Below, piece after piece: positions 3,001-20,088 of a stretch of DNA of 64,000 nt; position 1 is the first letter of the stretch, and every line of letters starts with the position of its first letter. Below the pieces are notes generated by a model that saw only the letters and a program-made list of their open reading frames with translations, was not told the DNA's origin and ran no database searches. The stretch is from Planctomycetota bacterium (GTDB lineage Bacteria; Planctomycetota; UBA8108; SXIK01), in the NCBI GenBank assembly GCA_965223265.1, contig OZ244999.1, positions 6,720,001 to 6,784,000 on the forward strand. The letters run 5' to 3'. The position numbers and the translations under genes were made by a program.

Positions 3001-5668
3001 GATAGGTCGATATGAGCAGCGACGAGTCGCCTGACTGTGAAGAGTCAAACGTGGCAACCCAGGCGTCGTCCGTCCCATCGAGAACGGTATCGTACGCACT
3101 GCGTGTTGTCAGGTCCGAAGATGTGGTGCCTCCCACTACGTACGTGATGGCGGCGGCATCGACGACGAGGTCTCCCACTGACTCGGAACCCGTTCCACCA
3201 AAGTACGTAGAGTAGTCGAGTGTGTTGCCGCTGGAGTTGATGCGGGCGACGAAAGCGTCGTTTGTGCCGGAAAGACTGCCTTGGAAGGCACCAGAGACCG
3301 GCAGGTCGTTCGAACTTGTCGTCCCGGCGAAGTGAACGTTACCGCTCGCGTCGACGGCAATCCCCTCGACGCTGTCCGCCGCCCCGCCACCAAAGTAGAG
3401 CGAGTAGAGCAGACTTCCGGTCGCGTCCAACTTCATCACGAACCCGTCCTGGCCACCAGCTGGGGTGAGCCCTAGCGTGCCCGCGGTCGGGAAGTCGGTA
3501 GAATCAGTCTGACCGGCAACGTAAACGTTTCCGGACGCATCCACTGCGATATCGTTGGCTCGATCGACGGCCGTGCCGCCGAGAAAGGCGACGTAGTCAA
3601 GGATCGGATCGATGACGAGCGGCACGCTTGGGTCGTAGGCACCCAATGCGAATCCCACGCTACCGTCTTCGAAGTGGCTGTAGCTGCTAGCGACAAGTTG
3701 CCGACCTTCAGCGCTGTCCTGATAACTCACGGGCGCCTTGAAGCGTACCGTTTCGCTAGATCCGGAAAGCGTCAGCACGAGGTCGCCGTTCTCCGCCACC
3801 ACCACATGATCGGCACCGGAGAACCGAAGCCTGATCGCGTCGGTGTCGGCGCCAGGCGCGACCTCAAAGTCGAACTCGAGGCGGCCGTCGCTCCCATAGT
3901 ATCGGACGTCGACTCCGTCGTAGACGTCGGTGTAGGAGACCTCACCGTAGTTGGCAATTCCGGTCAGCCAAGCCTCCGGGTCACGACCGAGAAAATAGCT
4001 CGTCGTGCTCTCGAGGAGGTCTCCGCCTGAGGCGCGGGCCAGTGCGTCACCGCCGACCAGATCCATACGCAGGACGTGATCGGAATCACCCGCGTCGAGC
4101 GCCACGACGGCGCCGGCGTCGGCCAGGAAGATCGAGTAACCGCTTCCTTGCGCGAGAAAGTCTACCGCGGCGTCGCTCTGGCCGACATTCGCTTCGAAGC
4201 GAATCGGAACGTCCGTGAACACCGACGTGGAAGCGGACGTTTGAGGCAGCTCAGCGTCGTCGGCGTCGAGTGTCGCGGTGTCAGTCGGCGAGTGTTCTTG
4301 GGCTAAGCTCTCTTGTTCCGGCTCTTCAGTAGCGTCGAGTTCCAGGTCCGACAACGCGACCTGGTCCGGTGACGCGTCGGTCGTGATCTCAGCGCTGAGA
4401 TCTTCATCCGTCTCCGCTGCGACGCTTTCCGTCGCTTCGGGGACGGAGACGCCGTCAGCGCCAGCCCCTGACTGCTCCGCGGGCGTGGTTTCTGCTATTT
4501 GGTCAGAGGCTCCGTCGTCAACGTCGGTTTCTTGCAAGAGAGCATCCGACTCGTTCCTGGGATACTCGCCGGCATCGTCTTTGCTCACTGCTTGATCTGA
4601 ATCAAAGTTCTTGGCCGGCTCCAGCGGCACCTCAGCGGGATCGGTCTCTGTCGCCGACTCAGACGGTTCAGAGCCCGAAAGAGCCGCTTCGACGAGAACT
4701 GACGCCGAGTCGGCGTCCGTCGTCGGTTGACTCTCTCCAAGTGCAGACGCGTCGACGACCTCGGTGTCGTTCGAGGTCGTGATGATATCTGTGACGTCCT
4801 GTTCCGGCGCTACGGCGGAGACACCGTCGTCGTGCACGGTCGTCCCATCGATCGCATCGTCAGCGAAGTCGCGAACGACGGCGCTAACAAGTCGCTCGAC
4901 GGTGACGCCGTGCTCCGCCGTCTTCTCCGCGGCGACGCGAAGACCCGGCGCCTCGGGATGCGGATGCAGGCGCGGCTTGGACGGTGCATCGAGATGAGAG
5001 TCTCCGCGTGAGTTCGCTTCGGCGATCTGCGTCGCGACGGCCGGCAACATGGTGCCGCGGCTCCAAAGCGCCGCGACCGAGTCGTCACTCGTCCCGTCGA
5101 CCGCTGCATCGGTGGTACGATCCGACGGATCGATGGCATCGATGGTGACATCGATAACGTTGCCGCCAACGACCTCGTCGAGAGTGTCGACGTTGCCGAT
5201 CTCCGCGGAGTTGGCTTGCGCTGCGGAATCACTCGACGCACTCACGTGCTCTTCGGCGTCGGAAGACGGTTCAGAATCGAGAAACACGATGTCGAATCCG
5301 TCTCGATGGTCGGCCGCACCAGATGGGTGAGTCCTATCTGTCTCTCGATCGAGATGTTCCGATCGGTCACTCTCCGGAGTCGGAGTCGACGCATGACGCG
5401 AGTCGACCTCAACTTCCTCGAGCGCATCGGCCAGCTCAAGATGGAATCCTGCCGTGGCGTCGTAAGCACCGACGTCGATCACGACGCCGTCGACGACTGC
5501 GCTCTGACTTGCGGCAACCTCCGAGGCGAGTTCGATGCCCGGAACGCTGTCAAGAACACTGGCCGCACCGCTGCCGACCATCGCCATGGCATCGAGCGCG
5601 ACGCCGGCGGCATCAGCCGAGAGCAAAATCCTCGGTTCAAGTTCTTCCAGCGAGTAACTGTCGCGCAC
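1..5668 (-). CDS. Giant LEPRxLL-domain surface/secreted protein, 3' end beyond window (>1,889 aa): acidic linker, DUF7948-like domain, SBBP beta-propeller repeats, CSLREA-like/beta-helix repeats
   Basis: Manual translation: GTG at 5668 (in-frame TAG at 5681-5683 bounds it) gives VRDSYSLEELEPRILLSAD. The same frame gives VPIRFEANVGQ (~4190), YSTYFGG..GIAVDASG repeats (~2300-3600), ISLREAITAANA (~2130) and GTLDLGNGQHGV at the window edge. The ORF track lists no stop-bounded ORF in this frame, consistent with an unbroken ORF. Confidence 0.9.
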   Translation of the reverse strand, partial: MRDSYSLEELEPRILLSADAAGVALDAMAMVGSGAASVLDSVPGIELASEVAASQSAVVDGVVIDVGAYDATAGFHLELADALEEVEVDSRHASTPTPESDRSEHLDRETDRTHPSGAADHRDGFDIVFLDSEPSSDAEEHVSASSDSAAQANSAEIGNVDTLDEVVGGNVIDVTIDAIDPSDRTTDAAVDGTSDDSVAALWSRGTMLPAVATQIAEANSRGDSHLDAPSKPRLHPHPEAPGLRVAAEKTAEHGVTVERLVSAVVRDFADDAIDGTTVHDDGVSAVAPEQDVTDIITTSNDTEVVDASALGESQPTTDADSASVLVEAALSGSEPSESATETDPAEVPLEPAKNFDSDQAVSKDDAGEYPRNESDALLQETDVDDGASDQIAETTPAEQSGAGADGVSVPEATESVAAETDEDLSAEITTDASPDQVALSDLELDATEEPEQESLAQEHSPTDTATLDADDAELPQTSASTSVFTDVPIRFEANVGQSDAAVDFLAQGSGYSIFLADAGAVVALDAGDSDHVLRMDLVGGDALARASGGDLLESTTSYFLGRDPEAWLTGIANYGEVSYTDVYDGVDVRYYGSDGRLEFDFEVAPGADTDAIRLRFSGADHVVVAENGDLVLTLSGSSETVRFKAPVSYQDSAEGRQLVASSYSHFEDGSVGFALGAYDPSVPLVIDPILDYVAFLGGTAVDRANDIAVDASGNVYVAGQTDSTDFPTAGTLGLTPAGGQDGFVMKLDATGSLLYSLYFGGGAADSVEGIAVDASGNVHFAGTTSSNDLPVSGAFQGSLSGTNDAFVARINSSGNTLDYSTYFGGTGSESVGDLVVDAAAITYVVGGTTSSDLTTRSAYDTVLDGTDDAWVATFDSSQSGDSSLLISTYLGGSAVDNATDVAVDTAGDIYITGITDSTDFATPNAFDSTFGGGTSDGFLAVLESSGTSLLYGTFLGDVGVDEALAVALAADGSVYVTGKTASPLFPTTVDGFDTSFDSAEEAFVLRIDTTQSGAATLVASTFLGGSDNDDAREIFVDAIGRVHVVGSTASSNLPATPHAHDGDFDGGTDAFAAIFSADLERLHYLTFLGGTGTDVATGIAVDTDGRASVSGHTTNTVFDSVAGPITHGPLGGAEDAFVARLVTALVVDTTADTLDAPDTSSVAALLSNPGVDGQISLREAITAANATIGTDTILFNIAGGGPHTIVVDSTGLGALPAITDPIIIDGTSEPSYAGAPVVELDGSSTAVGIDGLVLNTNDSTIRGLIVSQFGDDGIYITGDNNTIAGNYIGPDAAGTGVPSLRNEATGVNIDGGNNNTIGGPNVSDRNIISANTLSGVGIDLGTGNVIQGNYIGTDVNGAFDLGNLGDGINIFFGDGNFVLNNLISGNDDDGVTITDGSDGNVVQGNIIGYDATQTVLIGNTDEGVVVFGDSVGGNPPSNNNLIGGTGVGEGNVIVGNGDEGVFVFDGAGNAILGNTIHSNSGLGIDLSNTSTADGLTANDAGDIDVGSNNLQNFPVIDYAGTDGVDSVTISGSLSSTAATTFRIEFFANVTGDTSTVPSHGEGENLLGFTEVTTDGGGSATFDVTLSATVAVSELVTATATVKTGADTYADTSEFAQNLATTPLILTVTTTSDAVNGVTTSVASLIASDGGDGISLPEAILAANATGGTVSILFNIPAIDAGHFYYVDDGVAGQVSLANVTATTAATDAALVNPDPDFARSWWSIAPTSPLPAITDTVVIDGSSQPGYVDAPIVEIDGSSAGPGDGLELQAASSGSTLRALTINRASGNGVLILSDSNTIVASHLGVDVSGTLALGNTSNGVFVSGGASNVVGSTSFSDANVIGDNVNGVTLFGSGSGNQVVGNFIGTDKTGTLDLGNGQHGVLMSSSSG

Positions 5669-6565
5669 GGTGCAGTCAACCTAGAGAAGGCAAGAGAATC
5701 GATCGATTTGAAGGGAGGCGTTCCCTCATGGTTTCTATCGGACAGCCCAGGGAACGGCACCAGCACAGCAAACCTCATCCTCGTAATCAGCGTTTTCTTC
5801 ACGACTTCCGATGGGCCTGTAACCATCCGCGACCGACCAACGATCGACCAACGACCGTACGGACCGTCCCCTCCGTCCCCACCTCAGTGCACAAGACCTC
5901 GGCATCGACATCGAACGACGCTCGCACAGTGAACCCGTGACTCCGGGAAACGAAACCGCTGGAAGACGCCCTCGACGCGTAGCGAGGTAGCTGCGCTGTG
6001 ACCTCGCGTTGCGATTGGCGAAGCAAAGAGCAACACAATGCATGGACGCGAAGCAGCCGCGCGCGGCTTGCAGTTCGCAGTCAGATTCCAAGAGACGCAT
6101 CACAAGTGAACAGATTTCAGCGATCTGCTACGACCTCGCCCCAGAGCTGAGCGCAGGCTGTCGCGCGAGACTGTCGCACTTGCCACCGATCCAACCGCGG
6201 AAACCGCTCCGTCTGGACCACGCTGACATTCAGCGTGACTCGCCGTCACGCACCCCTTCCATGCTCAGATAGGCACTCGTTGCGAAACTACGTGAGAGTC
6301 GCAAACTAGACAAACACCGCCCGGGACGCGCGCGGAGATCCCGCGGTTCGCGGCGCCGATGCCAAGACCGCGGCAGCATCGCCGCGAGTCGCCGATTGCG
6401 GGGCAAGACGCCACGGCTGAAGTCGTCCCGTTAAAACTAGACGACGTTGTGACTGTTGTCTTGCCGGAGGCGCTGTTCGGCTCAACTGCCCTCTTGCAAC
6501 TTCTCGGGTACCGATCTAATCTCTCCCGAAACGCCCCCACCACCGACGCCTTCCTGGAGTTTGCC

Positions 6566-6970
6566 ATGAGCACCGATTCGTCGAGAGTCTTCCTGGAAAA
6601 ACTCGAAGAGCTCGAGTCTCTGCGCGCTGCCGAGATACCCGCCGACCGCCGCATCTCACCGCGTGTTCCGGTGCGTGGTGAAGCCGAGATGTTGGCTATC
6701 TCGGGAACCAGCGTGACGTCGAACCTTCTGCCGATCCAGATCCGTGACATCTCTTGGGCTGGGCTAGGATTCTTGTGTAGCGAAAAGCTCGTAGCGGATT
6801 CGCACTGGCGCATCTGCTTCATGGATCACGGCGAACAAATGGGGCAAGGCCGACTCATGGTGCGCCACTGTCGCGAAGTCAACGAGGGAATTTGTCTCGC
6901 TGGCGGCCTGTTCGTCATCGAAGCGTCGATTCCCGCACTTTTTGGTGTGCGCACGAGCGAACTTTCGTGA
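6566..6970 (+). CDS. Stand-alone PilZ-domain (c-di-GMP receptor) protein
   Basis: RxxxR (DRRISPR) and DxSxxG (DISWAG) motifs; GGAG upstream of ATG 6566. Confidence 0.8.
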   Translation: MSTDSSRVFLEKLEELESLRAAEIPADRRISPRVPVRGEAEMLAISGTSVTSNLLPIQIRDISWAGLGFLCSEKLVADSHWRICFMDHGEQMGQGRLMVRHCREVNEGICLAGGLFVIEASIPALFGVRTSELS

Positions 6971-7591
6971 TTGGCGTGCTTTGCGCCCGCCGGTTTCGGC
7001 ACCTCGTCTGAAGCGCCAAGACGTCGCCTGCACGGTGCACGACCTCCGACGCCAGCGGCGGCTCGAAGACGGACGAAGGCGCTCTCGTCGTCACTCTTTT
7101 TCAGGCTCTCGGATTCGGGTGGGGTGAGCGAAAAGTGCCGCATGAGCCCCGACGCTCGTCTGCGGCAAAGAACTCGCGTGATCAGACAGAAAGAGTAGCG
7201 TACGAACACGCCTTCTGCAGCCATCGCGGGCGCCCCGCCCTCGCCGTCGGAAGCCTTCGCGCGGAGCTAAGGGCGCCACCGTCGTGACTACGCTTCGCGC
7301 CGACGAGTGCACAATCGCTCGGGGCGACGCCATAGGTTCTCCGCGATCATATCTTCCTTGCTCCGTGCTTATCGGAAGCGTCCAAACGCGGTCCGTTTGT
7401 CGCTCCGTCTTACGTTCGCCACAGCCGCTGAACGCGAATAGACGACTTTCAGCTCGAAGCACCATTTCTCCACAGACTGCATATATATCATCGTCACGGT
7501 CTACCCCGCGGGGAAGGGCCGAAACAGTTGAAGATTCCATCAAAGTTCAGCCGATCTTTGTTGTGTCCAACATCGGTACTCGACCGACGCA

Positions 7592-9574
7592 ATGTCAAAT
7601 TTGGTGACCACATTCACGTCGCCAGAGAGAACGCGCTCTGGGCAACCAAAGATCATGAAGAGTCACTCGTCTACGCAGTCAATTACCGAACCGCTCGAGC
7701 ATACCGAACGGGCGAGGCAACACTCAGCTGACAATGCGGAGAACAAGAGCCCCTCATCTCTTGCTCAACTGTGTGCCGCCTGGATCGAGAATCAATGCCG
7801 CAACACGGGCGCAATTAGCTCAGCGTTCGCAACCCTCTTGAGTGCCGAGTCAGGCGACGCGATCAAACTTTCGTGGCCGCACTCGATCGCCACATCTTCG
7901 GAAGTCGAGCTGACAGCGGCTTCCGTCGAGAAGGAACAGCGCGTTGTTGTTCGCCGAGTTACGCGGAAGACCACAGACACGTCGACGGGGGAGGCGGCCA
8001 AGTCGATCCACATCGGACTGCCGCTCAACCGCGGCTCCGATCGTATCGGCACCGCGGTATTCGTTACGCACGATCAGTCCGACGGTTCGACGCATGCTCT
8101 TGCCAAGAGGCTCTATCAGAGCAGCGATTGGATCGATGAGCTCGCAGGGCCGATAACATCGCGGTCGCCAACCGAGAACTCCGCCTCAACAACCTCTCCC
8201 GATCTCCGCTTCGTGTTCGAGAGGTTTTGCACGCTGCTGGAGCAGGACCACTGGGAGACCGCATTGACTGCGTTCATGACGGAGTTGGCCTCTCACTTCG
8301 ACTGCGATCGCGCCAGCCTCGGGTTCGCGCAGCGCGGGCAGATTCGCCTCGCCGTCGTCTCAAGCACGGTGGAACTCGATCGCAAGACGAATGCAGCCCG
8401 CGCGATCGAGCGCTGCATGGACGAATGCTATCACCAAAGCGCGATCATAAAGTATCCGGCATCCGCGGCTGCGAGTGGGTCAGAATTTCGACTGACACGA
8501 GCTCACGATGAGTTGGCAAGGGAACTCAAGGCCGCTGCCATCTACTCCCTCCCCATTGTCGCTCACGGGGAAGTGATCGGGGTCGCAACCTTCGAGCATC
8601 GCGGCGCGGACGGACTCAGCGACCGAGCCATCTCGCTGTGCGATCTGGTGCTCGGAATGGCAGCTCCCTACCTACGACTGAGGCTTCGTGAACAGCGCCC
8701 GTGGTCAATCCGCGCGGCAGACGCGGCTGCAGACCTCAAGTCACGCTTCGCCTCGAAGGGCCATCGCGGCTGGAAAATCGGCGCTGCCTGCGCAGTGTTA
8801 GGTAGCCTCTTTCTATTCTTTGCCCACGGAGACTTCAGAGTTACGTCCCCTGGAATCCTGGAAGGATCGGTACAACGCTCACTCGTCGCCCCGTTTGACG
8901 GGTTCGTGCGAAGCTCCGAGATCCGGGCCGGTGAGGTCATTGCACAAGGCACAACACTTTGCACTCTGGATGATCGAGACCTCACACTCGAGGAGAGTAA
9001 GTGGCGCAGTGAGAAAGAGCAGATCGACAAACAGTACCAACAAGCCCTAGCCGAGCATGACGCCGTCGGACTCAAGATGCTCGCCGCGCGGAGCCGGCAG
9101 GCCGAGGCGCAGTTGAACTTGATTCGTGATCACATCAGGAAGACCCGTGTGGTTGCACCATTCGATGGAGTTGTCGTCCGCGGCGACTTGAGTCAGTCGA
9201 TCGGGGCGCCGGTGGCGCGTGGTGACGTACTCTATCAGATCGCTCCGCTCGATGGGTATCGAGTCAGCTTGCTGGTGGATGAACGAGATATCGCACACGT
9301 GAGCGAGTCGCAGCACGGCCGACTTGTGCTTCCGGCGTTTCCAGGTGAAAGCCTGCCGTTTGTTGTCACGAACGTCACGCCTGTCTCCACGACCGAGGAA
9401 GGACGAAATCACTTTCGCGTCGAAGCGAAACTGACTGAGAGGCCGAGTATTCGACTTCGTCCTGGTATGGAAGGTGTCGCCAAAATCGAAGTCGGTTCAA
9501 GAAACCTGTTCTACATCTGGACCCGCGGCGCCATTGAATGGCTGCAGCTGTGGTCATGGAAGTGGCTCCCATAG
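7592..9574 (+). CDS. GAF-domain HlyD-family membrane-fusion (periplasmic adaptor) protein
   Basis: GAF-like region (CDRASLG..SLPIVAHGEVIGV), single TM, APFDGFV..GE and APFDGVV..GD lipoyl half-motifs around a coiled coil, C-terminal LRPGMEG. Confidence 0.85.
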   Translation: MSNLVTTFTSPERTRSGQPKIMKSHSSTQSITEPLEHTERARQHSADNAENKSPSSLAQLCAAWIENQCRNTGAISSAFATLLSAESGDAIKLSWPHSIATSSEVELTAASVEKEQRVVVRRVTRKTTDTSTGEAAKSIHIGLPLNRGSDRIGTAVFVTHDQSDGSTHALAKRLYQSSDWIDELAGPITSRSPTENSASTTSPDLRFVFERFCTLLEQDHWETALTAFMTELASHFDCDRASLGFAQRGQIRLAVVSSTVELDRKTNAARAIERCMDECYHQSAIIKYPASAAASGSEFRLTRAHDELARELKAAAIYSLPIVAHGEVIGVATFEHRGADGLSDRAISLCDLVLGMAAPYLRLRLREQRPWSIRAADAAADLKSRFASKGHRGWKIGAACAVLGSLFLFFAHGDFRVTSPGILEGSVQRSLVAPFDGFVRSSEIRAGEVIAQGTTLCTLDDRDLTLEESKWRSEKEQIDKQYQQALAEHDAVGLKMLAARSRQAEAQLNLIRDHIRKTRVVAPFDGVVVRGDLSQSIGAPVARGDVLYQIAPLDGYRVSLLVDERDIAHVSESQHGRLVLPAFPGESLPFVVTNVTPVSTTEEGRNHFRVEAKLTERPSIRLRPGMEGVAKIEVGSRNLFYIWTRGAIEWLQLWSWKWLP

Positions 9575-9585
9575 GGATCGACGCG

Positions 9586-11769
9586 ATGGCGGGAACAAAT
9601 CACACAACCACGACCGACCGCGGCGCTGGAAGCTCCACAGCGAGCCCTTGGTGGGCACGTGTGGCCGATTTGCGTCCGCGGGTGCGGTCTCACGTCCGCC
9701 TCCATCGCCATGAGTATCGAGGTCAGGTCTGGTATGTCCTACAAAACCTGTTCAATTCACGGCACTTTCGACTGCCACCCAACTCCTATCTTCTTCTGGA
9801 GCTGATGAATGGCGTTCGAACAGTTGACGACATCTGGCAGGAAGCGAAGAGTCGCTTAGAAGACGAAGCTCCAAGCCAATCTCAGTGCATCCATCTGCTG
9901 TCGCAGCTTCACGTCGCCGATGCAATGACGTGTGACACGTCGCCCGACATCTCTCAGATGCTCACTCGATTCGAAAAGCGACATCGGCGTAAGTGGCACG
10001 AAGTATTGATGTCACCCCTGTTCTGGAAGCTGCCCTGCTTCGACCCAGAAAAATTTCTAGAAAAGGCCGCACCGTTGGCGAGGCCACTCTTCGCAAAGTG
10101 GGGCTTGCTCGCCTGGATTTCGGTAGTGGGATACGCAGCATCGCTGGTGGTCACCCACTGGCCTGATCTGACGGAGAACATCAGGGATCGAGTCTTTACC
10201 CCACAAAGCCTATTTCTGCTTTGGATTCTCTTCCCGATCTTGAAGACGATCCACGAGTTCGGCCACGCGATCGCCGTCAAGGTGTACGGCGGCGAAGTTC
10301 ACCGCGTCGGACTAATGCTTCTCGTCCTGACGCCGTTGCCATACATCGACGCCTCGGCTGCTTCCACCTTTCGCCGCAAACGAGAACGCGTAATCGTCGG
10401 ACTCGCGGGCATGATGGTCGAGCTTTTCGTTGCATCGATAGCGTTCTTTCTGTGGCTAAACGTCGAAGCCGGTACCGTCAAGACGATCCTCTACAACGTC
10501 ATTCTCCTCGCCGGTGTCACGACGGTCCTTTTCAACATCAACCCACTTCTGCGCTTCGACGGCTACTATGTTCTCTCCGACCTGATCGAAATCCCAAACC
10601 TTCGATCGCGATCGACCCAGTATCTACGCTACTTGATTGAACGCTACGTCTTCGGAGTTCGATTGCCTGCGTTCAATGCGGCCAAGAATGAACGCATGTG
10701 GCTTGTCAGCTACTCCGTTCTCTCGTTTCTCTACCGGATGATGATTCTCACAGGAATCATCATCTTCATCGCCGGGAAGTTCTTCTTCGTCGGCATCCTC
10801 TTGGCACTCTGGGGTTTCTCGTGTTGGATCGCCTGGCCGCTCTGGAAGAGTGGCCGCTACATCTTGACGCATCCCCGTCTCGATGCCGTTCGAGTGCGAG
10901 CTGCAGCGTCGGCGGCGGCAATCTTGCTTGCAGGCATCGTCCTTGTCTGCGCGATTCCTTTCCCCCTTGGTACGTACTGCGAGGGTGTCGTGTGGGTACC
11001 GAACGAGGGCGCCGTTCGTTCGACGGCAGACGGGTTCGTCACTTCGGTGCCGGCCGCTTCCGGGTCGACGGTGACCAAGGGTACGACGCTCATCGTTTGC
11101 GAGGATCCGATCGTCGACACGGGAATCGTGGCTCTTGAGGCAGAGCTTGAGGCACTGCAAGCGGAGTACGACAACGTCTGGAGACACGATCACGCCAAGG
11201 CAAAGATCGTCGATGAGAAGATCTCCCAAATCAAATCTAAGCTCTCCCGACAGATCGAGCGGCGCGCAGACCTCACCGTCGCGGCGCATTGCGACGGCAC
11301 CTTGGTGCTCCCTGTTTCTCAAGATCTCGTAGGGCGTTTCGTGGAGCAGGGAACGCTACTGGGCCACGTGCTCGATCTTGAGCAGGTGAAAGTACGCGTC
11401 GTCGTACCAGAGGGGTCGATCGATCTTGTTCGCGACACAACGAGGGCTGTTGAGCTTCGTCTAGCCGAGCGCGTCGGCGCGACCGTCCCGGCAAAGGTGG
11501 TTCGGGAAGTACCAGCTGTCTCGCAGGAGCTTCCGAGCGTCGCACTCGGAACGAGCGGCGGCGGCAGTATCGCGGTCGACCCTGCAGACGCCAAAGGCCT
11601 CACCGCACTGGATCGGTTCTATCAATTGGAACTCGAATGTGCGACGGCGGGTGGTGTCGTCAACGTCGGTGGCCGGGCGTTCGTACGCTTCGACCACGGC
11701 TGGGAACCGCTCGCGTGGCGCTGGTACCGCAGTGTTCGCCGACTTTTCTTGCGCCGCTTCAGCGTTTAA
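9586..11769 (+). CDS. PqqD/RRE-like + site-2 (M50) metallopeptidase + HlyD-like fusion protein
   Basis: N-terminal LLELMNGVRTVDDIW (PqqD-like), HEFGH and NINPLLRFDG M50 motifs, multiple TMs, C-terminal adaptor hairpin; start uncertain (9556 or 9586). Confidence 0.85.
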   Translation: MAGTNHTTTTDRGAGSSTASPWWARVADLRPRVRSHVRLHRHEYRGQVWYVLQNLFNSRHFRLPPNSYLLLELMNGVRTVDDIWQEAKSRLEDEAPSQSQCIHLLSQLHVADAMTCDTSPDISQMLTRFEKRHRRKWHEVLMSPLFWKLPCFDPEKFLEKAAPLARPLFAKWGLLAWISVVGYAASLVVTHWPDLTENIRDRVFTPQSLFLLWILFPILKTIHEFGHAIAVKVYGGEVHRVGLMLLVLTPLPYIDASAASTFRRKRERVIVGLAGMMVELFVASIAFFLWLNVEAGTVKTILYNVILLAGVTTVLFNINPLLRFDGYYVLSDLIEIPNLRSRSTQYLRYLIERYVFGVRLPAFNAAKNERMWLVSYSVLSFLYRMMILTGIIIFIAGKFFFVGILLALWGFSCWIAWPLWKSGRYILTHPRLDAVRVRAAASAAAILLAGIVLVCAIPFPLGTYCEGVVWVPNEGAVRSTADGFVTSVPAASGSTVTKGTTLIVCEDPIVDTGIVALEAELEALQAEYDNVWRHDHAKAKIVDEKISQIKSKLSRQIERRADLTVAAHCDGTLVLPVSQDLVGRFVEQGTLLGHVLDLEQVKVRVVVPEGSIDLVRDTTRAVELRLAERVGATVPAKVVREVPAVSQELPSVALGTSGGGSIAVDPADAKGLTALDRFYQLELECATAGGVVNVGGRAFVRFDHGWEPLAWRWYRSVRRLFLRRFSV

Positions 11770-11779
11770 GGAACCCCTG

Positions 11780-13501
11780 ATGTTTACCACGCACTTCATA
11801 CCGCGTCCTCTACGAGGCGCCTATGCCGAGCGGTCTCCCGACGAGAGAGTCTTGCGAAGAATTCCGCTCGCACCTCTAGCAACAAAAGCCATCGCCCGCC
11901 TACAGCTTCACAAGGTCAACAGTATCATTCGGCACGTGTTGGAACATGAAGAGACCTTCTACGGCCTCTCCATGGACAAACTTCGATGCGAGATCGCCGC
12001 GACGCGATCCGCCTTACGAAGCGAAGGCATGACCCGTGCCGTCGTTGGCCGCTGTATCGCACTCCACCGCGAGGCATTCACACGCTTGGAGTCACGTCAT
12101 CCTCCGATTTCGCACGCTCTCGCGACACTCGAGTTGCTGCGGGGACGCGCAGTCGAAGTCGATGACCCGTCGGCGCGCCGCTTCGCGGTTCTCGCCGCAA
12201 GCTCGATCGCAGCCCTCGCGGGTGTGCCCGTTCACGTGATTTCCACAACAGACGACGACGCCAAAAGGAATGCAAACGATGCTGAGGAACTCTGCAGCAT
12301 CACTGGGGTGCGAATCGGAACGATCCGTTCCGGTTTGTGTGCTACTGAACGACGCGCAGCGTACGCTCAAGACATCACGTTCGTGGCCGCCGACGAAGTC
12401 GCCCTCGATTCATTGCGAGATCAACAACTTCTCGGCGGTTCGCCGAGCAGGCTTCGCCTGAATCTCGAGAACGTCGCGTCGTCACGACCTCGAGAACGCT
12501 TCCTTCTCCTTCGAGGACTTCACTGCGCCATCATCGACGGTATCGACGATGTCCTCCTGAGTGCGAACGCCAGACCTGTTCAGCTCCACGCGCCGGTCGC
12601 GTCCTCCTCCGAGAGACCCGACAGCTCGGCGAACAGACAGCCGCTTGCGGTGAGCAGCTATCCAGCATTCTTCACGCGATACTTGCAGATTGCGGGCGTC
12701 GGCTCCTCGCTTAGTCAAAGGGTCGACGAGCTCACCGCGAGTTACAATCTCTCTGTAGTCAGTGTAGCTGGCTGCAAAGCTAGAGTGGCGAACGTTACAG
12801 AACGACAAGGTCAGCGCAGGATCTTTCGAAGGGACGGAGACTACTGGCAGGCGCTCGTCGACCGCGTCGGCTCACTCTGCCGTGCCGGCAATAGGCCGAT
12901 CGTCGCCATGGCAACCGTAGAGTCTCTAGACGAGCTCGCCGCCCGCCTGGCGACAACGCACGTCCCCTTCCAGACGCTCCCCATGAGTCGCGAGTCACAA
13001 GGGACACCGTCAAGGAAAGAGTCGGAGCTCACGTCGCGATGCTCAAGTAAGACCGCTGCGGCCATCCTAACGACCGACACGGCGTTGAGCCAAGTGGAGG
13101 TCGCTCGGCTGTCGCAGATCGGAAGCGGTGGAAGCCACCTCATCACCACTTACTGCGGCGGCGCGGCAACGGCACGGCGATTCTTTCACCGACTGCCGCG
13201 AACGGAACAACCCATCGTTCACGAGGAGTACCTGTCGTGCGAGAGCGAACTCGCCCTGGCGAAGCTTCCGTGGTGGTGTCGATTGCTGGAGCGCTCGCCT
13301 CGGCTGCAGCGACAACTCTGGGTAGGGAGGGTTCTTCTTTGGTCGGCGCAAAAACGATCCGAACGTCTTGCCCGCGCCATGCGACGCCGAACGGCGCGCC
13401 AAAGTGACCTTCTCCAAGAGCAAGTGAAACAAACACTCGCGTTCTCCGGAACCTACACAAAACCACAAACGCGACCAGACCCGTCTATCGCGAAACGGTA
13501 G
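11780..13501 (+). CDS. Degenerate SecA_DEAD-like protein (probable pseudo-ATPase)
   Basis: SecA-like segments VHVISTTDDDAKRNA, RRAAYAQDITF..DSLRD, AFFTRY and C-terminal LAFSG; Walker A and DEAD motifs substituted; AAGGA RBS before ATG 11780. Confidence 0.75.
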   Translation: MFTTHFIPRPLRGAYAERSPDERVLRRIPLAPLATKAIARLQLHKVNSIIRHVLEHEETFYGLSMDKLRCEIAATRSALRSEGMTRAVVGRCIALHREAFTRLESRHPPISHALATLELLRGRAVEVDDPSARRFAVLAASSIAALAGVPVHVISTTDDDAKRNANDAEELCSITGVRIGTIRSGLCATERRAAYAQDITFVAADEVALDSLRDQQLLGGSPSRLRLNLENVASSRPRERFLLLRGLHCAIIDGIDDVLLSANARPVQLHAPVASSSERPDSSANRQPLAVSSYPAFFTRYLQIAGVGSSLSQRVDELTASYNLSVVSVAGCKARVANVTERQGQRRIFRRDGDYWQALVDRVGSLCRAGNRPIVAMATVESLDELAARLATTHVPFQTLPMSRESQGTPSRKESELTSRCSSKTAAAILTTDTALSQVEVARLSQIGSGGSHLITTYCGGAATARRFFHRLPRTEQPIVHEEYLSCESELALAKLPWWCRLLERSPRLQRQLWVGRVLLWSAQKRSERLARAMRRRTARQSDLLQEQVKQTLAFSGTYTKPQTRPDPSIAKR

Positions 13502-13526: not shown

Positions 13527-14414
13527 ATGCTGCAACGATTCACCTCCAACCCTCTAGCGCCTCCCCTACTGAAGAGAGTTTCGCGCCGCGTAAAGCTAGC
13601 CCTGCCTCTCGCTCTCGCCGTCGTGCTGACGGGACTGAGAAGCCAGGGTGACGAGCCAGGGCAACGCCTCACAGAGTTCGACGGGGTGACGGAGCCCTCG
13701 CAAGAAGTCCTCGTCGCCGCCGCTGCGGATGGACTGATCGCATCGATCGAAGTCGATCGTGGCAGCACGGTGGCGAAGGGACAGATCGTTGCGACGCTCG
13801 AGTCGAGCGTTCAAGCAACACTTTTAGACGTCGCCGAAGCACGAACAGAGTTGACTGCCGATCTCAGACGACAGGAGGCGAGCCTCGAATTCCACCGACT
13901 GAAGGAGCAGCGGGATGAACGCCTTTTCCAAAAAGGAATCATCTCTGATCAGGTCTTCGCCCAAAGCCATCGCGATCGACGCCTGGCCGAAGCGAACCTG
14001 CTCCAAGCCGAAGAAGATTTGCGTCTCGCCAAGCTCGAGAGAGATCACGCTCAGGCAAGGTTGACCCAGCGAACCATCCGCAGTCCTCTCGACGGCGTCG
14101 TGGTGGAGCGTCTTATGTCACCTGGCGAACTGGTCACTCAAGGTCGCAACGCAGAGATTCTGAAAGTTGCGCAGATCAATCCTCTCCACGTCGAAGTCAT
14201 TCTCCCGGTTGAGATCTTCGGCTCCGTCGAGGTTGGAATGCTGGCTGAGATTCGACTTGATTCTTCTGCCGACACTCACCCGGCGGCTGTCACTGTTGTC
14301 GATCGCGTCGTCGACGCCGCCAGTGGCACGTTCGGAATCAGGCTCGAGCTCGCCAACGAAAACGGTGATATACCGGCCGGAGTCAAATGTCGCGTTCGAC
14401 TGGTGCGGGAATGA
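13527..14414 (+). CDS. Efflux RND-type periplasmic adaptor subunit
   Basis: AAADGLIASIEVDRG, coiled coil, IRSPLDGVV, VDAASGTF, PAGVKC. Confidence 0.85.
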   Translation: MLQRFTSNPLAPPLLKRVSRRVKLALPLALAVVLTGLRSQGDEPGQRLTEFDGVTEPSQEVLVAAAADGLIASIEVDRGSTVAKGQIVATLESSVQATLLDVAEARTELTADLRRQEASLEFHRLKEQRDERLFQKGIISDQVFAQSHRDRRLAEANLLQAEEDLRLAKLERDHAQARLTQRTIRSPLDGVVVERLMSPGELVTQGRNAEILKVAQINPLHVEVILPVEIFGSVEVGMLAEIRLDSSADTHPAAVTVVDRVVDAASGTFGIRLELANENGDIPAGVKCRVRLVRE

Positions 14415-16159
14415 CCATCGTCTCCCCCCGCCTTCCCACCACTGAACCCACGAACCGTTTGGTCTACCTCACGAACGCGCGGAGAACCTGTCTGGATGCG
14501 TCCGTGAGCCGCCTGACGCTGCTGTGGGCAACTCTCTGCCTGGGCCTCGCGACGCAGCATAGCGACGCCGCGCCACGCAGCAGCGCGAAATCGACGGCGA
14601 TTGCGCCGAAAGACATGTCATCGTCTGTCGACGTCGCAACGCGATCGAGCGGCGCACAAGCGGAGAAGGCGATCATAGAGATTTCCGTCGAGGAAGCGAT
14701 TCGCATGGCACTCGCGAATAGCTTTGACGTCAAAATCGCTTCGACCGGCCACAGAATTCGACAGCGCGAAGTGGCGATCGAGAGAGCCGAGTTCGACCCT
14801 TTCTTCTTCGGAGGTACGGACTACTCCAAGAATCGCAAGCCGACAGCCAGCTTTCTTGATGTAGGCAATACCGCACTTCAAGGCGTCACGAATAACCCGT
14901 TCGAGACGTGGAGCTACCACGTTGGCATCGGCGGAAAGTCCTGGCTGGGAACGCTCTACAGTGTGGAGCTGCGCCACTCAGCCCTCGATCAACCACTGGC
15001 CAACCAAACAATCTTCGGCATCAACCCGCAGGAACAGGTCACCGCGACATTTGAGGTCACACAGCCCCTCCTACGTGGAGGTTGGCAGCAGTACAACTCT
15101 GCGCGAATCCGCATCGCCGCAAACGACGAGCAGATCTCGCAGCACGACCTGAAGCACCGCGCTACCGAAATCCTATACTCCGTCGAAGTCACCTATTGGC
15201 GACTTAGCTATGCAATCAAGAACTACGAGTCGAAGCAAAAAGCTCTTCAAGCGACGAACGACTACCTCGCGATCGTACGGACAGCTCACGAGGCTGGCGC
15301 CATGTCTGTCAGCGATTTGCTGTCCGCGAAGAGCCAACTGGCGCTGCGCAAAGTAGAACTCAACGAAAGCCTTGTTCTCGTTCGCGACACACGCGATCGG
15401 CTGCTTCTTTTGGTCAATCGCGGCGGCGGCGAAGAATCGCTCAAGGAAAAGTGGCGCAACGGCGTTCTCGAACCGACCTTTGACGACGTCTGGGTCATCC
15501 CGACGTCGGAACCTGACACGACTCCGATGTCACCGAGCCGAACTCAGTCTCTCGAAATCGCATTCGATCAGCGCGCCGACTACAGACAACTACTTCTCCA
15601 CGACAAAAGCCATCGAGTCGGTGCTCAAGTAGCAAAGAACGAGTCGCTCCCGGATCTCAACGCCCTGTTTCGGTGGCAACAATTCGGCCTTGACGACGAC
15701 TTCGGTGCGTCGTATTCCTCGCTGGGTGACGGGGACTTTTACGGCTGGACGGTTGGGGTGGAGCTTCGATTTCCGCTCTTCAATCGCGGCCCCAAGGAGC
15801 GTTACTGGCAAGCTCTCGACCGGATCTCTGAGACCAATCTCCGACGCAGAAAGCTGGAGAATCAAATCGTCGCACAAGTCGACCAGAGCATTCGCAACCT
15901 CGCGGCGATCCAGGAGAGGCTGGCGGATTTGGCCGAACGGGTCGAGCTTCAAAACGAGCTTCTGCAGCAAGAGCGCGACAAGCTCCAGCTCGGAAACGCG
16001 ACCGTCTACAACATCACGCTGATGGAAAACGATTTGTTAGAAAGCGAGGCTCTCTCGCTTCGAGCAAAGTCAGAATATCAGGCGGCGAAGGCCGACTACG
16101 CACGAGCGATTGGCACACTACTCTCTGATCGCGGCGTTGAAACAATGGGGACCGAGTAA
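14411..16159 (+). CDS. TolC-family outer membrane channel
   Basis: EEAIRMALANS, VTQPLLRG, SLPDLN, ELRFPLFNRG, alternating helical/beta OEP pattern; ATGA overlap with upstream adaptor. Confidence 0.85.
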   Translation: MTIVSPRLPTTEPTNRLVYLTNARRTCLDASVSRLTLLWATLCLGLATQHSDAAPRSSAKSTAIAPKDMSSSVDVATRSSGAQAEKAIIEISVEEAIRMALANSFDVKIASTGHRIRQREVAIERAEFDPFFFGGTDYSKNRKPTASFLDVGNTALQGVTNNPFETWSYHVGIGGKSWLGTLYSVELRHSALDQPLANQTIFGINPQEQVTATFEVTQPLLRGGWQQYNSARIRIAANDEQISQHDLKHRATEILYSVEVTYWRLSYAIKNYESKQKALQATNDYLAIVRTAHEAGAMSVSDLLSAKSQLALRKVELNESLVLVRDTRDRLLLLVNRGGGEESLKEKWRNGVLEPTFDDVWVIPTSEPDTTPMSPSRTQSLEIAFDQRADYRQLLLHDKSHRVGAQVAKNESLPDLNALFRWQQFGLDDDFGASYSSLGDGDFYGWTVGVELRFPLFNRGPKERYWQALDRISETNLRRRKLENQIVAQVDQSIRNLAAIQERLADLAERVELQNELLQQERDKLQLGNATVYNITLMENDLLESEALSLRAKSEYQAAKADYARAIGTLLSDRGVETMGTE

Positions 16160-16242: not shown

Positions 16243-17535
16243 ATGGCGACGGAAATCCGCATGCCGCAGTTGGGCGAGAGCATTGCCGAGGCGACTCTGG
16301 TCCGATGGTTCAAATCGGCTGGGGAGTTCATCGAACGAGATGAGCCGCTCTTCGAGGTTTCCACCGACAAAGTCGACACGGAGGTGCCTTCGACAACGAG
16401 CGGCTACCTGAGTCGCATCCTCGTCGAGGAGGGAGAGACGGTGGCGGTGAACACCGTCGTCTGCGTCTTGTCCCAGACTCCGGAGGAACCTCAAGGCAAA
16501 GGTGGGCAAGACGAGACGAAGTCTCACGGCCAAAGTGACGTCGCAGTCGGAGCAGTCCCCGCCAGCGCAGCGACGGCGGCGGCTACAACGTCGCCGGGTT
16601 CGAGTCTGACGTCGTCCGCGACGATCGAATCGTTTCCGAAGACGCCGGAATCGGAACTCAAGGAACGCTTACGGGCCAAGTCGTCACCACTCGTGCGCCG
16701 TCTGGCGGCCGAGCACGGCATAGACCTTTCGACCCTCCGCGGCACGGGAATTCACGGGCGCGTGACGAAGAAGGACTTGCTCGCTCACTTGGCAAGGACT
16801 GATACGAAATCATCAACTGGTGATTCGCCGACTTCGGGCGATCGTGTCGAGCCTCTGTCGCCGATGCGTCGGCAGATCGCTGAGCACATGGTTCTGAGTC
16901 GACGCACGTCGGCTCATGTGACAACCGTTTTCGAGGTGGACATGTCTCGCGTCAGAGCGGCGCGCGATAGTCTCCGCCCTCTCATGCAGGAGAGATGGGG
17001 CACTAAACTGAACGATCTGGCAATCATTTTGAAGATCGTCGCCGAAGGCCTGCAAGCCTTTCCGATCTTAAATGCGTCCCTCGAAGAAGGACAGATCCGC
17101 TACCACGGCAACGTCAACATCGGTGTTGCCGTAGCCGTCGAGCATGGCTTGCTGGTCCCAGTTGTGCGTGACGTCGATCGCCAGGCGTTAGCCGAGGTGT
17201 CGCGGACGGTGGAAGACCTCGCCGGGCGGGCGCGCACGAAGAAACTGAAGCCTGACGAGGTGCACGGCGGAACCTTCACGGTCACGAATCCAGGGGCCTT
17301 TGGGGCGATCATCGGAACACCGATCATCCATCAACCGCAGGTCGGGATTCTCTGCGTCGGCAAGATTGAAAAGCGGCCCGTAGTTCTTCCCGAATCGGAC
17401 GCGATCGCCGTGCGCACGATGGCCTATCTGAGCCTCAGCTACGACCATCGACTCATCGATGGTGTCACGGCGGATCAGTTCCTCGCGACGCTCAAAGATC
17501 GAATGGAAACGACGACCCCCGCTGATTGGGCATAG
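16243..17535 (+). CDS. 2-oxoacid dehydrogenase E2, dihydrolipoamide acyltransferase (SucB-like)
   Basis: Lipoyl motif STDKVDTEVPS, E3-binding GTGIHGRVTKKD, catalytic YDHRLIDG; strong GGAGGAG RBS. Confidence 0.92.
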   Translation: MATEIRMPQLGESIAEATLVRWFKSAGEFIERDEPLFEVSTDKVDTEVPSTTSGYLSRILVEEGETVAVNTVVCVLSQTPEEPQGKGGQDETKSHGQSDVAVGAVPASAATAAATTSPGSSLTSSATIESFPKTPESELKERLRAKSSPLVRRLAAEHGIDLSTLRGTGIHGRVTKKDLLAHLARTDTKSSTGDSPTSGDRVEPLSPMRRQIAEHMVLSRRTSAHVTTVFEVDMSRVRAARDSLRPLMQERWGTKLNDLAIILKIVAEGLQAFPILNASLEEGQIRYHGNVNIGVAVAVEHGLLVPVVRDVDRQALAEVSRTVEDLAGRARTKKLKPDEVHGGTFTVTNPGAFGAIIGTPIIHQPQVGILCVGKIEKRPVVLPESDAIAVRTMAYLSLSYDHRLIDGVTADQFLATLKDRMETTTPADWA

Positions 17536-17577
17536 TGCATACTGGGCGTCTTCAGCGAAACAGTTTTTGCCGACAAC

Positions 17578-18735
17578 ATGACTGAATCCAACCACCGCAA
17601 GCCTCGTGTCATCATCGGCGACAGCCACTCGGTCACCGACCTCTACTACGCGACTCAGTTCGAGGTGACAGGGCCGGTGGTCTACGTCGAACTCAATGGA
17701 CAAAAGCTCCTCTTGGTGAACGACCTGGAATACGGCCGAGCCAAGAGCGAAGCACGCGTCGATGAAGTCGTCTCGACAACACCCTATGAAAACGCCCTGC
17801 ACGCAGAGTCAAAAGCACCAACTCTCGTCAATCTTCTCCACGTCTTCTTGAAAGAAAAGGTTGGAGGAGGCGGGAATGGCGCTTCGCCGGTGCAGATCAC
17901 TGTCCCCACAGGATTTCCAATTGGTTACGCTGACAGTCTCCGCGACCTCGGCTACAAACTTGAGGTTCAGACCGATCCGTTCATCCCGGAACGCTCAGTC
18001 AAAACGGCCACGGAGATTGAGCTCATCGAATCGGCCCAGGCGCACGCTGAATCTGCGATGTCGCTGGCAGTCGACATCATCGGCGCGGCGGAAATCCGTG
18101 GTAACGCGCTATGGCGAGACGACGAACCGCTGACCGCTGAACACGTCCGGCGCGAGATGCAAAAACTCCTGCTCGACCGTGACTGCGAAGCCTCTGGAAT
18201 CATCGTCGCCGGTGGTGACCAAGGTGCCGATCCGCACCAACGCGGGTTCGGGCCACTGCCCGCGAACGACACGATCATCATCGACGTCTTTCCACATTCG
18301 ATGACGAATTTTTACTGGGGTGACATGACTCGTACGGTCGTGAGAGGGAGAGCGTCGGCCGAGGCGCATGGTATCTACGAAGCAGTCCTCGGTGCCCAGG
18401 AACTCGCGATCTCGCTCGTCAAGCATGGCGCGAGTGGCGTCGACATCCACTCCGCCGTTGTCGAGCACTTCGAACGGAGCGGTCACAAGACCGGTGAAGA
18501 GAACGGCAAGAAAGTCGGCTTCATTCACGGCACGGGCCACGGTGTCGGACTCGACATTCATGAGCTGCCCCGCGTTGGTCGGCTCGGCTCGCAGCTCGCA
18601 GCCGGGCAAGTCGTGACAATTGAACCCGGCCTCTATTACCCCGGTGTCGGCTCGGTGCGTTTAGAAGACATCGTGATCGTCACCGAGAACGGCTGTCGCA
18701 ATCTCAATCGCTTCCCGAAGGTTCTTGAGATCTAG
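17578..18735 (+). CDS. Xaa-Pro aminopeptidase family (M24) protein
   Basis: GDMTRT, HGTGHGVGLDIHE, TIEPGLY, RLED metal-binding motifs. Confidence 0.92.
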   Translation: MTESNHRKPRVIIGDSHSVTDLYYATQFEVTGPVVYVELNGQKLLLVNDLEYGRAKSEARVDEVVSTTPYENALHAESKAPTLVNLLHVFLKEKVGGGGNGASPVQITVPTGFPIGYADSLRDLGYKLEVQTDPFIPERSVKTATEIELIESAQAHAESAMSLAVDIIGAAEIRGNALWRDDEPLTAEHVRREMQKLLLDRDCEASGIIVAGGDQGADPHQRGFGPLPANDTIIIDVFPHSMTNFYWGDMTRTVVRGRASAEAHGIYEAVLGAQELAISLVKHGASGVDIHSAVVEHFERSGHKTGEENGKKVGFIHGTGHGVGLDIHELPRVGRLGSQLAAGQVVTIEPGLYYPGVGSVRLEDIVIVTENGCRNLNRFPKVLEI

Positions 18736-18987
18736 CTGGGAGTTTGGCCACTCAGCACCGAAGTGGCAAGCACTTCGTTTGCGTGAGCGCGGGCGTGCGG
18801 CCGGCACAAGTTTTCGCTAGAACGGCTCGGAAACCCTTGTCCTACGGCTCGATCTCGGTTGTGGAACCCGGTGCCCTTGCTACTTGACCGCCCTCGCACA
18901 CGCAGACGCGCACCGACGTGAAGCGCTTCTCTTTCGCGAGCCAATCGATCTGAGGTCCGGCGAAGCGCAGCGCGCGACATCACTCGA

Positions 18988-19893
18988 TCAGGAGAGCATC
19001 TTGAGCATCGCCGCAATGCGGTGCGCACGTCGCGTGTCGCTCTGATCCCAGTAGACCTTGAACAAATTGTTCAACGTTCGAATCAGGATCGCGTCGTCTG
19101 TGGCCGAGTCGAAATGCTCGTCCCGGAAACCAACGCCAGCAACGTTCAGGAGCCGAACGCAATCATGTACGGTGAGAAGTCTGCCGCGGTTGAATGCATC
19201 GATGAATAGTTCGCCGCTGTCGCCTTGGTACTTGAGGAGGAAATGCTGCGGCATACACACGCCATGCACTTGGAGCGACAGCCGTCGGCAAACGAGGAGC
19301 ACAACCGTCGCCAGGCTGATCGGGATGCCGCGTTTCTCATCGATGACTCGGTTGACGTAGCTGTTCTCGGGACGGTAGTAGTCCTTCAGCGGCCGCCCTG
19401 AATAGCCAAGTTCATCGAAGAAAAGCTTACGCAACTTGTTCATGGCATCATCGAGGCTACCCCCAGACAAGCGCAAGCGAAGCGTGGCGGCGTAGTCGTC
19501 GAGAATGTCCGCATAGCGCTCGACGTCGCAGTAAGGATCCTCCGTCCGGGCTAAGAGAAACACACCGGTCTCTAGGTCACGGTCCTTTTGACGGCAATAC
19601 TGTACCCACTCTCGGAACACCTCACGGCGACGCCACTCCAGTACGAACCTCTGAGCCTGCACCTTGACGCGTTCGTCTGTCGATTCCCGTGCGGCGTGGC
19701 GAATACTTGGCAGCGCGGGACCGCCGATCCGCTCTAATTCCTCCCATGCCACCGTCAAGATCTTGCGATCCTCGTCCCCGAGCAAGGAGACGAGCGCCTC
19801 GATGCGCGAGAGCGGCACTCGCTGTCCGCGGTTTGCCCCTGATGAAGGCAACGGCGTGCCCCCTCGTTCACTCGCTGATCTGTTTTCGGACAT
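18988..19893 (-). CDS. SirB1/transglutaminase-like (Transglut_core2) protein with N-terminal HEAT-like segment
   Basis: YYRPENSYVNRVIDEKRGIPISL, GVCMPQHFLL, FIDAFNRG. Confidence 0.85.
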   Translation of the reverse strand: MSENRSASERGGTPLPSSGANRGQRVPLSRIEALVSLLGDEDRKILTVAWEELERIGGPALPSIRHAARESTDERVKVQAQRFVLEWRRREVFREWVQYCRQKDRDLETGVFLLARTEDPYCDVERYADILDDYAATLRLRLSGGSLDDAMNKLRKLFFDELGYSGRPLKDYYRPENSYVNRVIDEKRGIPISLATVVLLVCRRLSLQVHGVCMPQHFLLKYQGDSGELFIDAFNRGRLLTVHDCVRLLNVAGVGFRDEHFDSATDDAILIRTLNNLFKVYWDQSDTRRAHRIAAMLKMLS

Positions 19894-20088
19894 CACATTC
19901 TGACGAAAGTTCGACCCAAAGCGCGGCTCGTCGCCCGCCGACGACTTTCGCAATGCGGAGCATATGTAGGCGATATGAGGAGCATCGAGTGTATCTCCCC
20001 TCTCATCCAGTGTTCCAAGCGCGCAGCCCGGCGCTCGACGACCAGCCTGAGACCAGTTTTCGGCTCGAAGCACTTATTCAACAGGCTG

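Follow-up and report, generated by a model that had tools for sequence, protein, structure and literature searches.

The stretch of DNA analysed here (the window; 64,000 nucleotides of a Planctomycetota bacterium, GenBank assembly GCA_965223265.1, contig OZ244999.1, positions 6,720,001 to 6,784,000) carries a five-gene operon whose third gene encodes P0001, a SecA-like protein that is the subject of this report. The operon begins with the gene of a GAF-HlyD adaptor and continues with those of an M50-like metalloprotease fused to an HlyD adaptor (M50-HlyD), P0001, a third HlyD-type adaptor and a TolC-like outer-membrane factor. HlyD_3 and HlyD_D23 domains were found across three of the products, and Pfam and NCBIfam searches detected no ABC domain in any of the five. 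All five open reading frames (ORFs) are open, and P0001 is separated from its flanking genes by 10 nt upstream and 25 nt downstream. Head-to-head with this cassette, and transcribed divergently from it, lies a giant ORF of 8,707 amino acids.

The P0001 ORF extends from an ATG at position 11780 to a stop at 13501 and encodes 573 residues without an internal stop, whereas the five alternative frames each contain between 9 and 19 stops. Its longest form begins at a GTG at 11639; since the upstream gene terminates at 11769 and an AGGA is found 9–12 nt 5' of the ATG, the 573-residue form is the likely product. The GC content by codon position (0.64/0.52/0.65) is still gene-like, albeit flatter than in the neighbouring genes. 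In Pfam the sole domain is SecA_DEAD (PF07517), which matches residues 40–275 with 100.6 bits (cut-off 24.6, E 1.3e-28) and bears out the profile alignment that a preliminary description of the locus, made by eye from the letters, had called for. At E ≤ 0.01 Pfam returned no PPXD (preprotein cross-linking domain, PF01043), NBD2 or wing/scaffold (PF07516) family; the alignment stops after the first scaffold helix, and the C-terminal tail is likewise absent. The secA models of NCBIfam score 44–84 bits against cut-offs of 725–1,493, and those for canonical whole-length SecA are far from satisfied (TIGR00963, 83.9 vs 800 bits; NF009538, 79.9 vs 814 bits). Homology to NBD1 is also evident against solved SecA structures (PDB 1nkt_A, E 7.1e-15).

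Computed alignments, on the one hand with solved SecA structures and on the other with 13 family members and the genome's own SecA, served to assign the ATPase motifs (Table 1). By alignment column none of the five motifs (0/5) is intact, and the replacements that had been read by eye were all reproduced residue for residue. The pattern [AG]xxxxGK[ST] of the P-loop occurs neither in P0001 nor in any of the five operon proteins, in line with the earlier statement that the locus is without an obvious NTP motor. To judge from its sequence, P0001 cannot form a canonical ATP site because the P-loop is missing, the catalytic glutamate has become a glycine and motifs III, V and VI have been lost. The PPXD, previously described as replaced by a short linker, is indeed reduced to a scar: the region comprises 24 residues in P0001 compared to 131–136 in intact members, a loss of ~111 residues in frame. 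The terminal motifs GAYAER and LAFSG are retained, as are the reading frame and the AGGA element, all in agreement with the preliminary description; F555 and G557 of LAFSG belong to the columns with a retention of at least 70% across the other degenerate members. The genome consists of one contig of 9.18 Mb with a single cassette and contains two SecA_DEAD genes, P0001 and an 889-residue housekeeping SecA in which all motifs are present; the genome-wide search for an intact secondary SecA that had been proposed thus yielded no second short SecA.

Table 1 Features of the P0001 locus (positions in the window; amino acid numbering of P0001 for its motifs)
Feature	Position	Strand	Basis
P0001, 573-aa short SecA-like protein, predicted pseudo-ATPase	11780..13501	+	ORF translation, Pfam, alignments, AF2 model, Foldseek
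GAYAER, family-specific N-terminal motif (GxYPER in relatives), kept, aa 13-18	11816..11833	+	alignment
Walker A relic, EVDDPSARR for EMxTGEGKT, aa 126-134	12155..12181	+	both alignments
Walker B/DEAD-box relic, IIDGIDD for VDEADS, aa 251-257, catalytic Glu to Gly	12530..12550	+	alignment
Scar of in-frame PPXD deletion, aa 272-289	12593..12646	+	alignment, model
Motif III relic, AGVGSS for AGMTGT, aa 305-310	12692..12709	+	both alignments
Motif V relic, TTDTALSQVEV for TNMAGRGTDI, aa 431-441	13070..13102	+	alignment
Motif VI relic, RFFHRLPRTE for QLxGRxGRQG, aa 467-476	13178..13207	+	alignment
LAFSG, family-specific C-terminal motif, kept, aa 553-557	13436..13450	+	alignment
GAF-HlyD adaptor, 660 aa, one predicted membrane helix (aa 393-411)	7592..9574	+	domain searches
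M50-like intramembrane metalloprotease fused to HlyD adaptor, 743 aa, HEFGH site intact	9538..11769	+	domain searches
Third HlyD-type adaptor, 295 aa	13527..14414	+	domain searches
TolC-like outer-membrane factor, 590 aa (OEP, 4.5e-37)	14387..16159	+	domain searches
LEPR-XLL giant ORF, first 1,889 codons	2..5668, continuing genome C1:6699545-6725668	-	ORF, NCBIfam

The closest homologues of P0001 are proteins of ~660 residues that comprise SecA_DEAD, PPXD and NBD2, do not have the wing/scaffold and are at most 37% identical to it. GxYPER and LAFSG, as defined from the alignments of this analysis, are the terminal motifs of this short family itself, for which NCBIfam holds no specific model. 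The slot of P0001, between M50-HlyD and HlyD and downstream of GAF-HlyD, matches the operon of the short family. We conclude that P0001 is by sequence a divergent member of the short SecA family and not a decayed housekeeping SecA; the preliminary description was right to call it a SecA homologue, but had measured it against the housekeeping protein rather than the ~660-residue form. These secondary SecA_DEAD proteins and their conserved locus have been described before (Kamneva, Poudel & Ward 2015, PLoS One, PMC4452313), in a paper whose main text reports them from Planctomycetes, Verrucomicrobia, Proteobacteria and other phyla, with their function untested. The locus is described there as comprising GAF-HlyD, Peptidase_M50-HlyD and HlyD genes, sometimes an OEP gene and no ABC transporter, and the short SecA is proposed to serve as the ATPase in place of the ABC transporter, with the M50 protein providing the passage through the membrane. 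The main text of that paper contains none of the terms Walker, catalytic, inactive, pseudogene and ATP-binding, and degenerate members are thus not discussed in that text. A literature search on the short SecA and its cassette returned, within the library it covered, only this study and one paper citing it, with no experimental follow-up and nothing on degenerate members.

The same gene order (GAF-HlyD, M50-HlyD, short SecA, HlyD) is found in five relatives, G001, G007, G012, G016 and G021 (for G007 the fetched stretch did not extend to the HlyD gene), and in all five the SecA-like protein has intact motifs and a PPXD. The three neighbouring genes are 41–53% identical to those of the relatives over ungapped columns, a range that applies equally between the relatives. 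P0001, in contrast, is 28–34% identical to the SecA-like proteins of the relatives over such columns, compared to 51–75% among the latter. In six-taxon trees the terminal branches of the neighbouring genes measure 0.65–0.67 changes per site and that of P0001 1.94; the SecA-like branches of G001 and G021 measure 0.50 and 0.51, so the P0001 branch is roughly fourfold longer than theirs. In a tree of 41 M50-HlyD rows the genome groups with G001 and G021 (SH-aLRT 96) on a branch of ordinary length, and the six genomes form one clade (SH-aLRT 96). This comparison demonstrates that the predicted loss of the motor is specific to the lineage of P0001.

In the SecA-like trees (LG+G4), which carry a warning of long branches, P0001 falls alongside other degenerate sequences, and the approximately unbiased (AU) test of a grouping with the syntenic relatives is borderline (p 0.048). 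The placement with the degenerate sequences is probably a result of long-branch attraction, since the M50-HlyD tree joins the genome firmly to its relatives and G007 has the sequence most identical to P0001. The gene may instead be a foreign degenerate copy that has replaced the original. P0001 and P0224 both read V-x-D-P-x-x-R-R at the former P-loop, through shared ancestry or by chance; the resemblance is relevant to a possible membership of P0001 in an older clade of degenerate sequences.

Degenerate members recur elsewhere in the family. We classified 233 sequences by alignment column (database matches of 500–720 residues, the five relatives and 54 complete locus genes); 177 have five of five motifs, 28 including P0001 have at most two and 11 are without PPXD. 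The sample had been ordered by its similarity to a degenerate query, and such members may be over-represented in it. Two of the PPXD-less proteins keep all or most of their ATPase motifs (P0176, 566 residues, 5/5; P0235, 558 residues, 4/5), and the clamp can therefore be lost independently of the ATP site. An unbiased sample was provided by M50-HlyD as the query, which identified 80 loci in about ten phyla. A complete downstream frame in the same gene order is present in 54 of them, and 52 of the 54 encode all five motifs and the PPXD. The other two, L059 and L080, carry a gene with none of the motifs (0/5) and no PPXD in the very operon slot that P0001 occupies. In the M50-HlyD tree L059 is sister to L040, whose SecA-like protein is intact, and L080 is sister to L066; both lie on branches apart from that of P0001, which implies at least three separate origins of degeneration, and the pattern of retention shared between these lineages is hence convergent.

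The rest of the 80 loci comprise seven with broken or run-on SecA-like frames, three cut by the contig end, two with the gene on the opposite strand and 14 without a match. The seven (L021, L025, L026, L035, L045, L048 and L096) were left out of the counts, and their broken frames may be assembly or sequencing errors rather than pseudogenes; most of the seven are bins of one assembly series. Among the 14 without a match, ten have no more than 16 nt after M50-HlyD, L056 and L088 have ~400 nt and L098 has a partial M50-HlyD match. In two loci, L066 and L032, the slot after M50-HlyD clearly holds no SecA-like gene; an HlyD gene follows directly in the former (3269-6207), and in the latter (3464-8683) a LEPR-XLL-type giant ORF starts after 160 nt. 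Two further SecA_DEAD candidates, the weak matches L110 and L111 in genomes G042 and G043, turned out to be RecG-like helicases and were rejected.

Three kinds of test bear on whether P0001 is a maintained protein. The first concerns the reading frame. The orthologue of G007 was allowed to accumulate neutral substitutions, and substitutions only, until its identity to the start had fallen to 0.54, which matches the excess divergence of P0001; none of 400 runs remained free of stops, and the mean was nine stops. The ~13 indel events that distinguish P0001 from the family-majority columns are all in frame. The second kind concerns hydrophobicity and employs a null model in which stops are forbidden and evolution is otherwise neutral, run until the share of conserved columns kept equals that of P0001. 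Of the 127 columns that are hydrophobic in the family 97 are still so in P0001 (0.76, compared to 0.66 ± 0.044 in the null), a value reached by four of 200 runs, and among changed columns the hydrophobic fraction is 0.62 against 0.48 (five of 200 runs). Polar columns show no excess retention over the stop-forbidding null.

The third kind asks which positions are retained. From 176 intact members 119 columns conserved to at least 90% were defined, 100 of which are aligned in P0001. These were sorted by their fate in the 27 other degenerate members: where at least 70% of those members retain the residue, P0001 does so in 26 of 37 columns, as against 10 of 41 for intermediate columns and 3 of 22 for columns that are lost in the others (Fisher 3.3e-5); with the categories taken from the 12 degenerate members outside the tree cluster of P0001, the figures are 29/44, 7/39 and 3/17. 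The set that is kept is non-catalytic and includes G148/H152, R191/Y195, D210/L212/D214, G246/L247, D253/D256, P266, F298/Y301 and G306, and furthermore Q524, R535 and F555/G557, whereas the lost set consists of the P-loop, the catalytic glutamate and motifs III, V and VI. The tests of the frame, the hydrophobic columns and the pattern of retention are positive, and as indirect tests they favour a maintained protein over a decaying pseudogene.

Structure prediction, which had been suggested as a check, returned a SecA fold. The AlphaFold2 (AF2) model of P0001, computed from 44 aligned sequences, has a pLDDT of 81.7 and a pTM of 0.85, and predicts two alpha/beta domains and, at the C-terminus, a long helix; the PPXD scar (loop of residues 278–282) is modelled with low confidence. 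The top matches of this model in Foldseek are all SecA (E 7e-25 and weaker, TM 0.59–0.72 on the query). A prediction of the complex of P0001 with residues 1–425 of M50-HlyD scored 0.28 and 0.19, below the mark of 0.32, and is not used as evidence in either direction.

The giant ORF that adjoins the cassette is uninterrupted, acidic, rich in G, A, T, D and V and contains not a single cysteine. Its N-terminus matches the LEPR-XLL model of NCBIfam (28.2 bits, cut-off 17), its first 1,889 residues comprise DUF7948, SBBP repeats and beta-helix regions according to Pfam, and at its C-terminus a hydrophobic segment precedes a charged tail. We regard this protein as the candidate cargo of the cassette. 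Within the fetched flanks (±8 kb) a LEPR-like motif with at least 400 open codons is present in 7 of 85 related loci and in none of 85 reversed controls, which indicates that the link between the cassette and LEPR-XLL giants is real but partial within this distance. That a frame of 26 kb is uninterrupted speaks for continued use of the candidate cargo, and the intact HEFGH site speaks likewise for continued use of the M50 protein, its predicted partner in processing and export.

The remaining surroundings of the operon can be described briefly. The upstream ORFs (6265-6822, 6826-7224, 7091-7543, 7284-7607 and 6359-6970) match no Pfam family; the last of these, on the plus strand upstream of GAF-HlyD, encodes 203 residues with two hydrophobic segments, and neither Pfam nor NCBIfam assigned it to a family, nor was a match found in the 85 related loci. 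Directly 3' of the cassette (16243-20073) lie genes for a 2-oxoacid dehydrogenase E2 (sucB-like), an M24 Xaa-Pro peptidase and, on the minus strand, a transglutaminase-like protein, which are ordinary and without an evident link to the cassette.

On balance, we lean towards the view that P0001 is a pseudo-ATPase that has been kept as a structural, folded and non-catalytic subunit. P0001 would be the short SecA-like component of a conserved, ABC-less cassette resembling type I secretion, and its lineage would have lost ATP binding, hydrolysis and the polypeptide clamp while keeping the fold. The parts that remain, namely the two RecA-like cores, the N-terminal extension with GAYAER and the C-terminal helix ending in LAFSG, could dock on the cytoplasmic face of an inner-membrane complex of M50-HlyD and GAF-HlyD, where P0001 may act as a structural, gating or assembly subunit. 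With ATPase and clamp gone the energy for any export would have to come from elsewhere, and we may speculate that it is provided by the housekeeping SecA, by the proton-motive force or by the extracellular folding of the acidic, cysteine-free cargo. The preliminary description had proposed a pseudo-ATPase scaffold; the loss of the ATP site and of the PPXD stands and the indirect tests favour a maintained protein, whereas the word scaffold remains conjectural. That description had overlooked the 2015 account of the family and its operon, the recurrence of degenerate and PPXD-less members and the adjoining LEPR-XLL giant. A broader generalisation, which we consider unlikely at present, is that the essential job of the short SecA is structural (docking, gating or assembly) and its ATPase and clamp are dispensable, so that the giant would be handled by a trans-envelope machine that has no dedicated NTPase and is powered by one of these same three sources.

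Several observations weigh against a maintained subunit. No orthologue more than 37% identical to P0001 was found in 5.8 billion clusters, 1.84 billion representatives, 40 relatives or 400 genomes from the phylum. When metagenomes were scanned with the PPXD-less clade, three loci at 44–45% identity were recovered, whose length is that of PPXD-bearing forms. P0001 keeps 33 of 92 near-invariant family columns (36%), its NBD2 is badly eroded (30 of 90 conserved columns kept) and the retained sites cluster only modestly, the observed number of runs being attained in 276 of 10,000 shuffles. As their starting point the null models take the gene of one relative instead of the true ancestor. The AF2 model depends on an alignment of intact relatives, and its pLDDT is below 50 across residues 405–447, the region of motif V. 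A degenerate copy can also vanish outright: in the Thiohalophilus pair it is present in L080 and absent from the sister locus L066, and L032 has none either. Two of three other genomes examined contain a second cassette, G041 (L059; L056/L109), where it is cut by the contig end, and G043 (L066; L106), where it is intact, and since the genomes of L059 and L066 are thus doubly equipped, redundancy is conceivable for degenerate copies elsewhere. Finally, a frame in a tight operon could be held open by selection against polar stops in the absence of any protein function.

The last point is the core of the alternative that fares best, which we nevertheless think improbable: P0001 could be a functionless relic whose frame is open only to spare the expression of the downstream HlyD and TolC-like genes, a stop or frameshift being costly through lost translational coupling or Rho-dependent polarity, and the gene shrinking by in-frame deletions until it is gone. 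Such a course would agree with the narrow intergenic gaps, with the overlap of the SecA-like genes of L059 and L080 with the M50-HlyD stop, with the in-frame excision of the PPXD and with the long branch of P0001, and the empty slots of L066 and L032 would be its possible endpoint. However, the null that forbids stops seldom attains the observed hydrophobic retention, GAYAER and LAFSG survive, and the pattern of kept columns shared with other degenerate lineages (29/44 vs 10/56) is not predicted by selection on the open frame.

A decaying pseudogene that lost its function fairly recently and has stayed open by luck, in a cassette that may be on its way out, would account for the disappearance of all catalytic motifs and the PPXD and for the small share of near-invariant columns kept. 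It would also agree with a search for data sets containing this DNA, which returned four from a single study and listed none of RNA. We consider it doubtful in view of the 400 neutral runs, none of which stayed open, and of the signs of constraint in the hydrophobic and retention tests; moreover, the branch lengths of the neighbouring genes are normal, the protease site is intact and the adjoining giant frame is uninterrupted.

Alternatively, a true SecA motor might act in trans, with the 889-residue housekeeping SecA supplying ATPase and clamp and P0001 serving as its adaptor to M50-HlyD. The housekeeping protein is the only intact SecA_DEAD protein of the genome and P0001 keeps SecA-like NBD surfaces in the model, both of which fit this notion. 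The relatives with intact short SecAs carry a housekeeping SecA as well, which argues against the short form being a mere duplicate of it, and we find the arrangement in trans rather implausible. That P0001 is an NTPase with a non-canonical site is barely credible: D253 and D256 of the DExD box and R471 and R474 of motif VI remain, but the sequence contains no [AG]xxxxGK[ST] anywhere, the glycines, lysine and threonine of the P-loop, the catalytic glutamate and motifs III and V are all replaced, and the former motif positions are unconserved among degenerate members.

As a putative non-catalytic subunit, P0001 can be compared to several known systems. It shares with housekeeping SecA, and with the SecA2 of Actinobacteria and Firmicutes, the NBD1 homology, the fold of two RecA domains and the long helix that follows, and differs from them in the absence of PPXD, helical wing, two-helix finger, C-terminal tail and ATP site; nor is it encoded with SecY2 or accessory Sec genes. 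With type I secretion the cassette has in common that periplasmic adaptors and a TolC-like channel are co-encoded, with a giant, acidic and cysteine-free candidate cargo adjoining. It is distinguished from type I secretion by the lack of an ABC transporter and by its three adaptors, one fused to M50 and one to GAF, and the candidate cargo has an N-terminal LEPR-XLL rather than a known C-terminal secretion signal. Pseudoenzymes of the P-loop/RecA type keep their fold, lose their catalytic residues and are retained inside a multi-subunit machine; P0001 would resemble them in these respects, and its partner contacts are putative. Like the secondary SecA_DEAD proteins described in the main text of PMC4452313, P0001 is without wing/scaffold and is encoded beside GAF-HlyD, M50-HlyD and HlyD genes; it departs from them in having neither the motifs nor the PPXD of what is proposed there to be a functional ATPase. 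The family and its operon are thus already known from that paper. The literature searched contains no description of a complete genome whose sole copy has a dead motor and no clamp and adjoins an intact giant gene.

The proposed logic of this widespread cassette is that a short SecA replaces the ABC transporter as its motor. The genome described here, a closed assembly, represents a natural case of separated functions, in that the motor appears dead, the clamp is deleted and there is no spare short SecA, while the genes of the adaptors, the protease, the channel and the candidate cargo are intact. The conserved non-catalytic patches FDYLRD, LRGL and FFRRY, together with LAFSG, are candidate sites of contact with partner proteins. 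If the cassette still works in this genome the motor model needs revision; if it no longer works, the locus shows how such machines decay.

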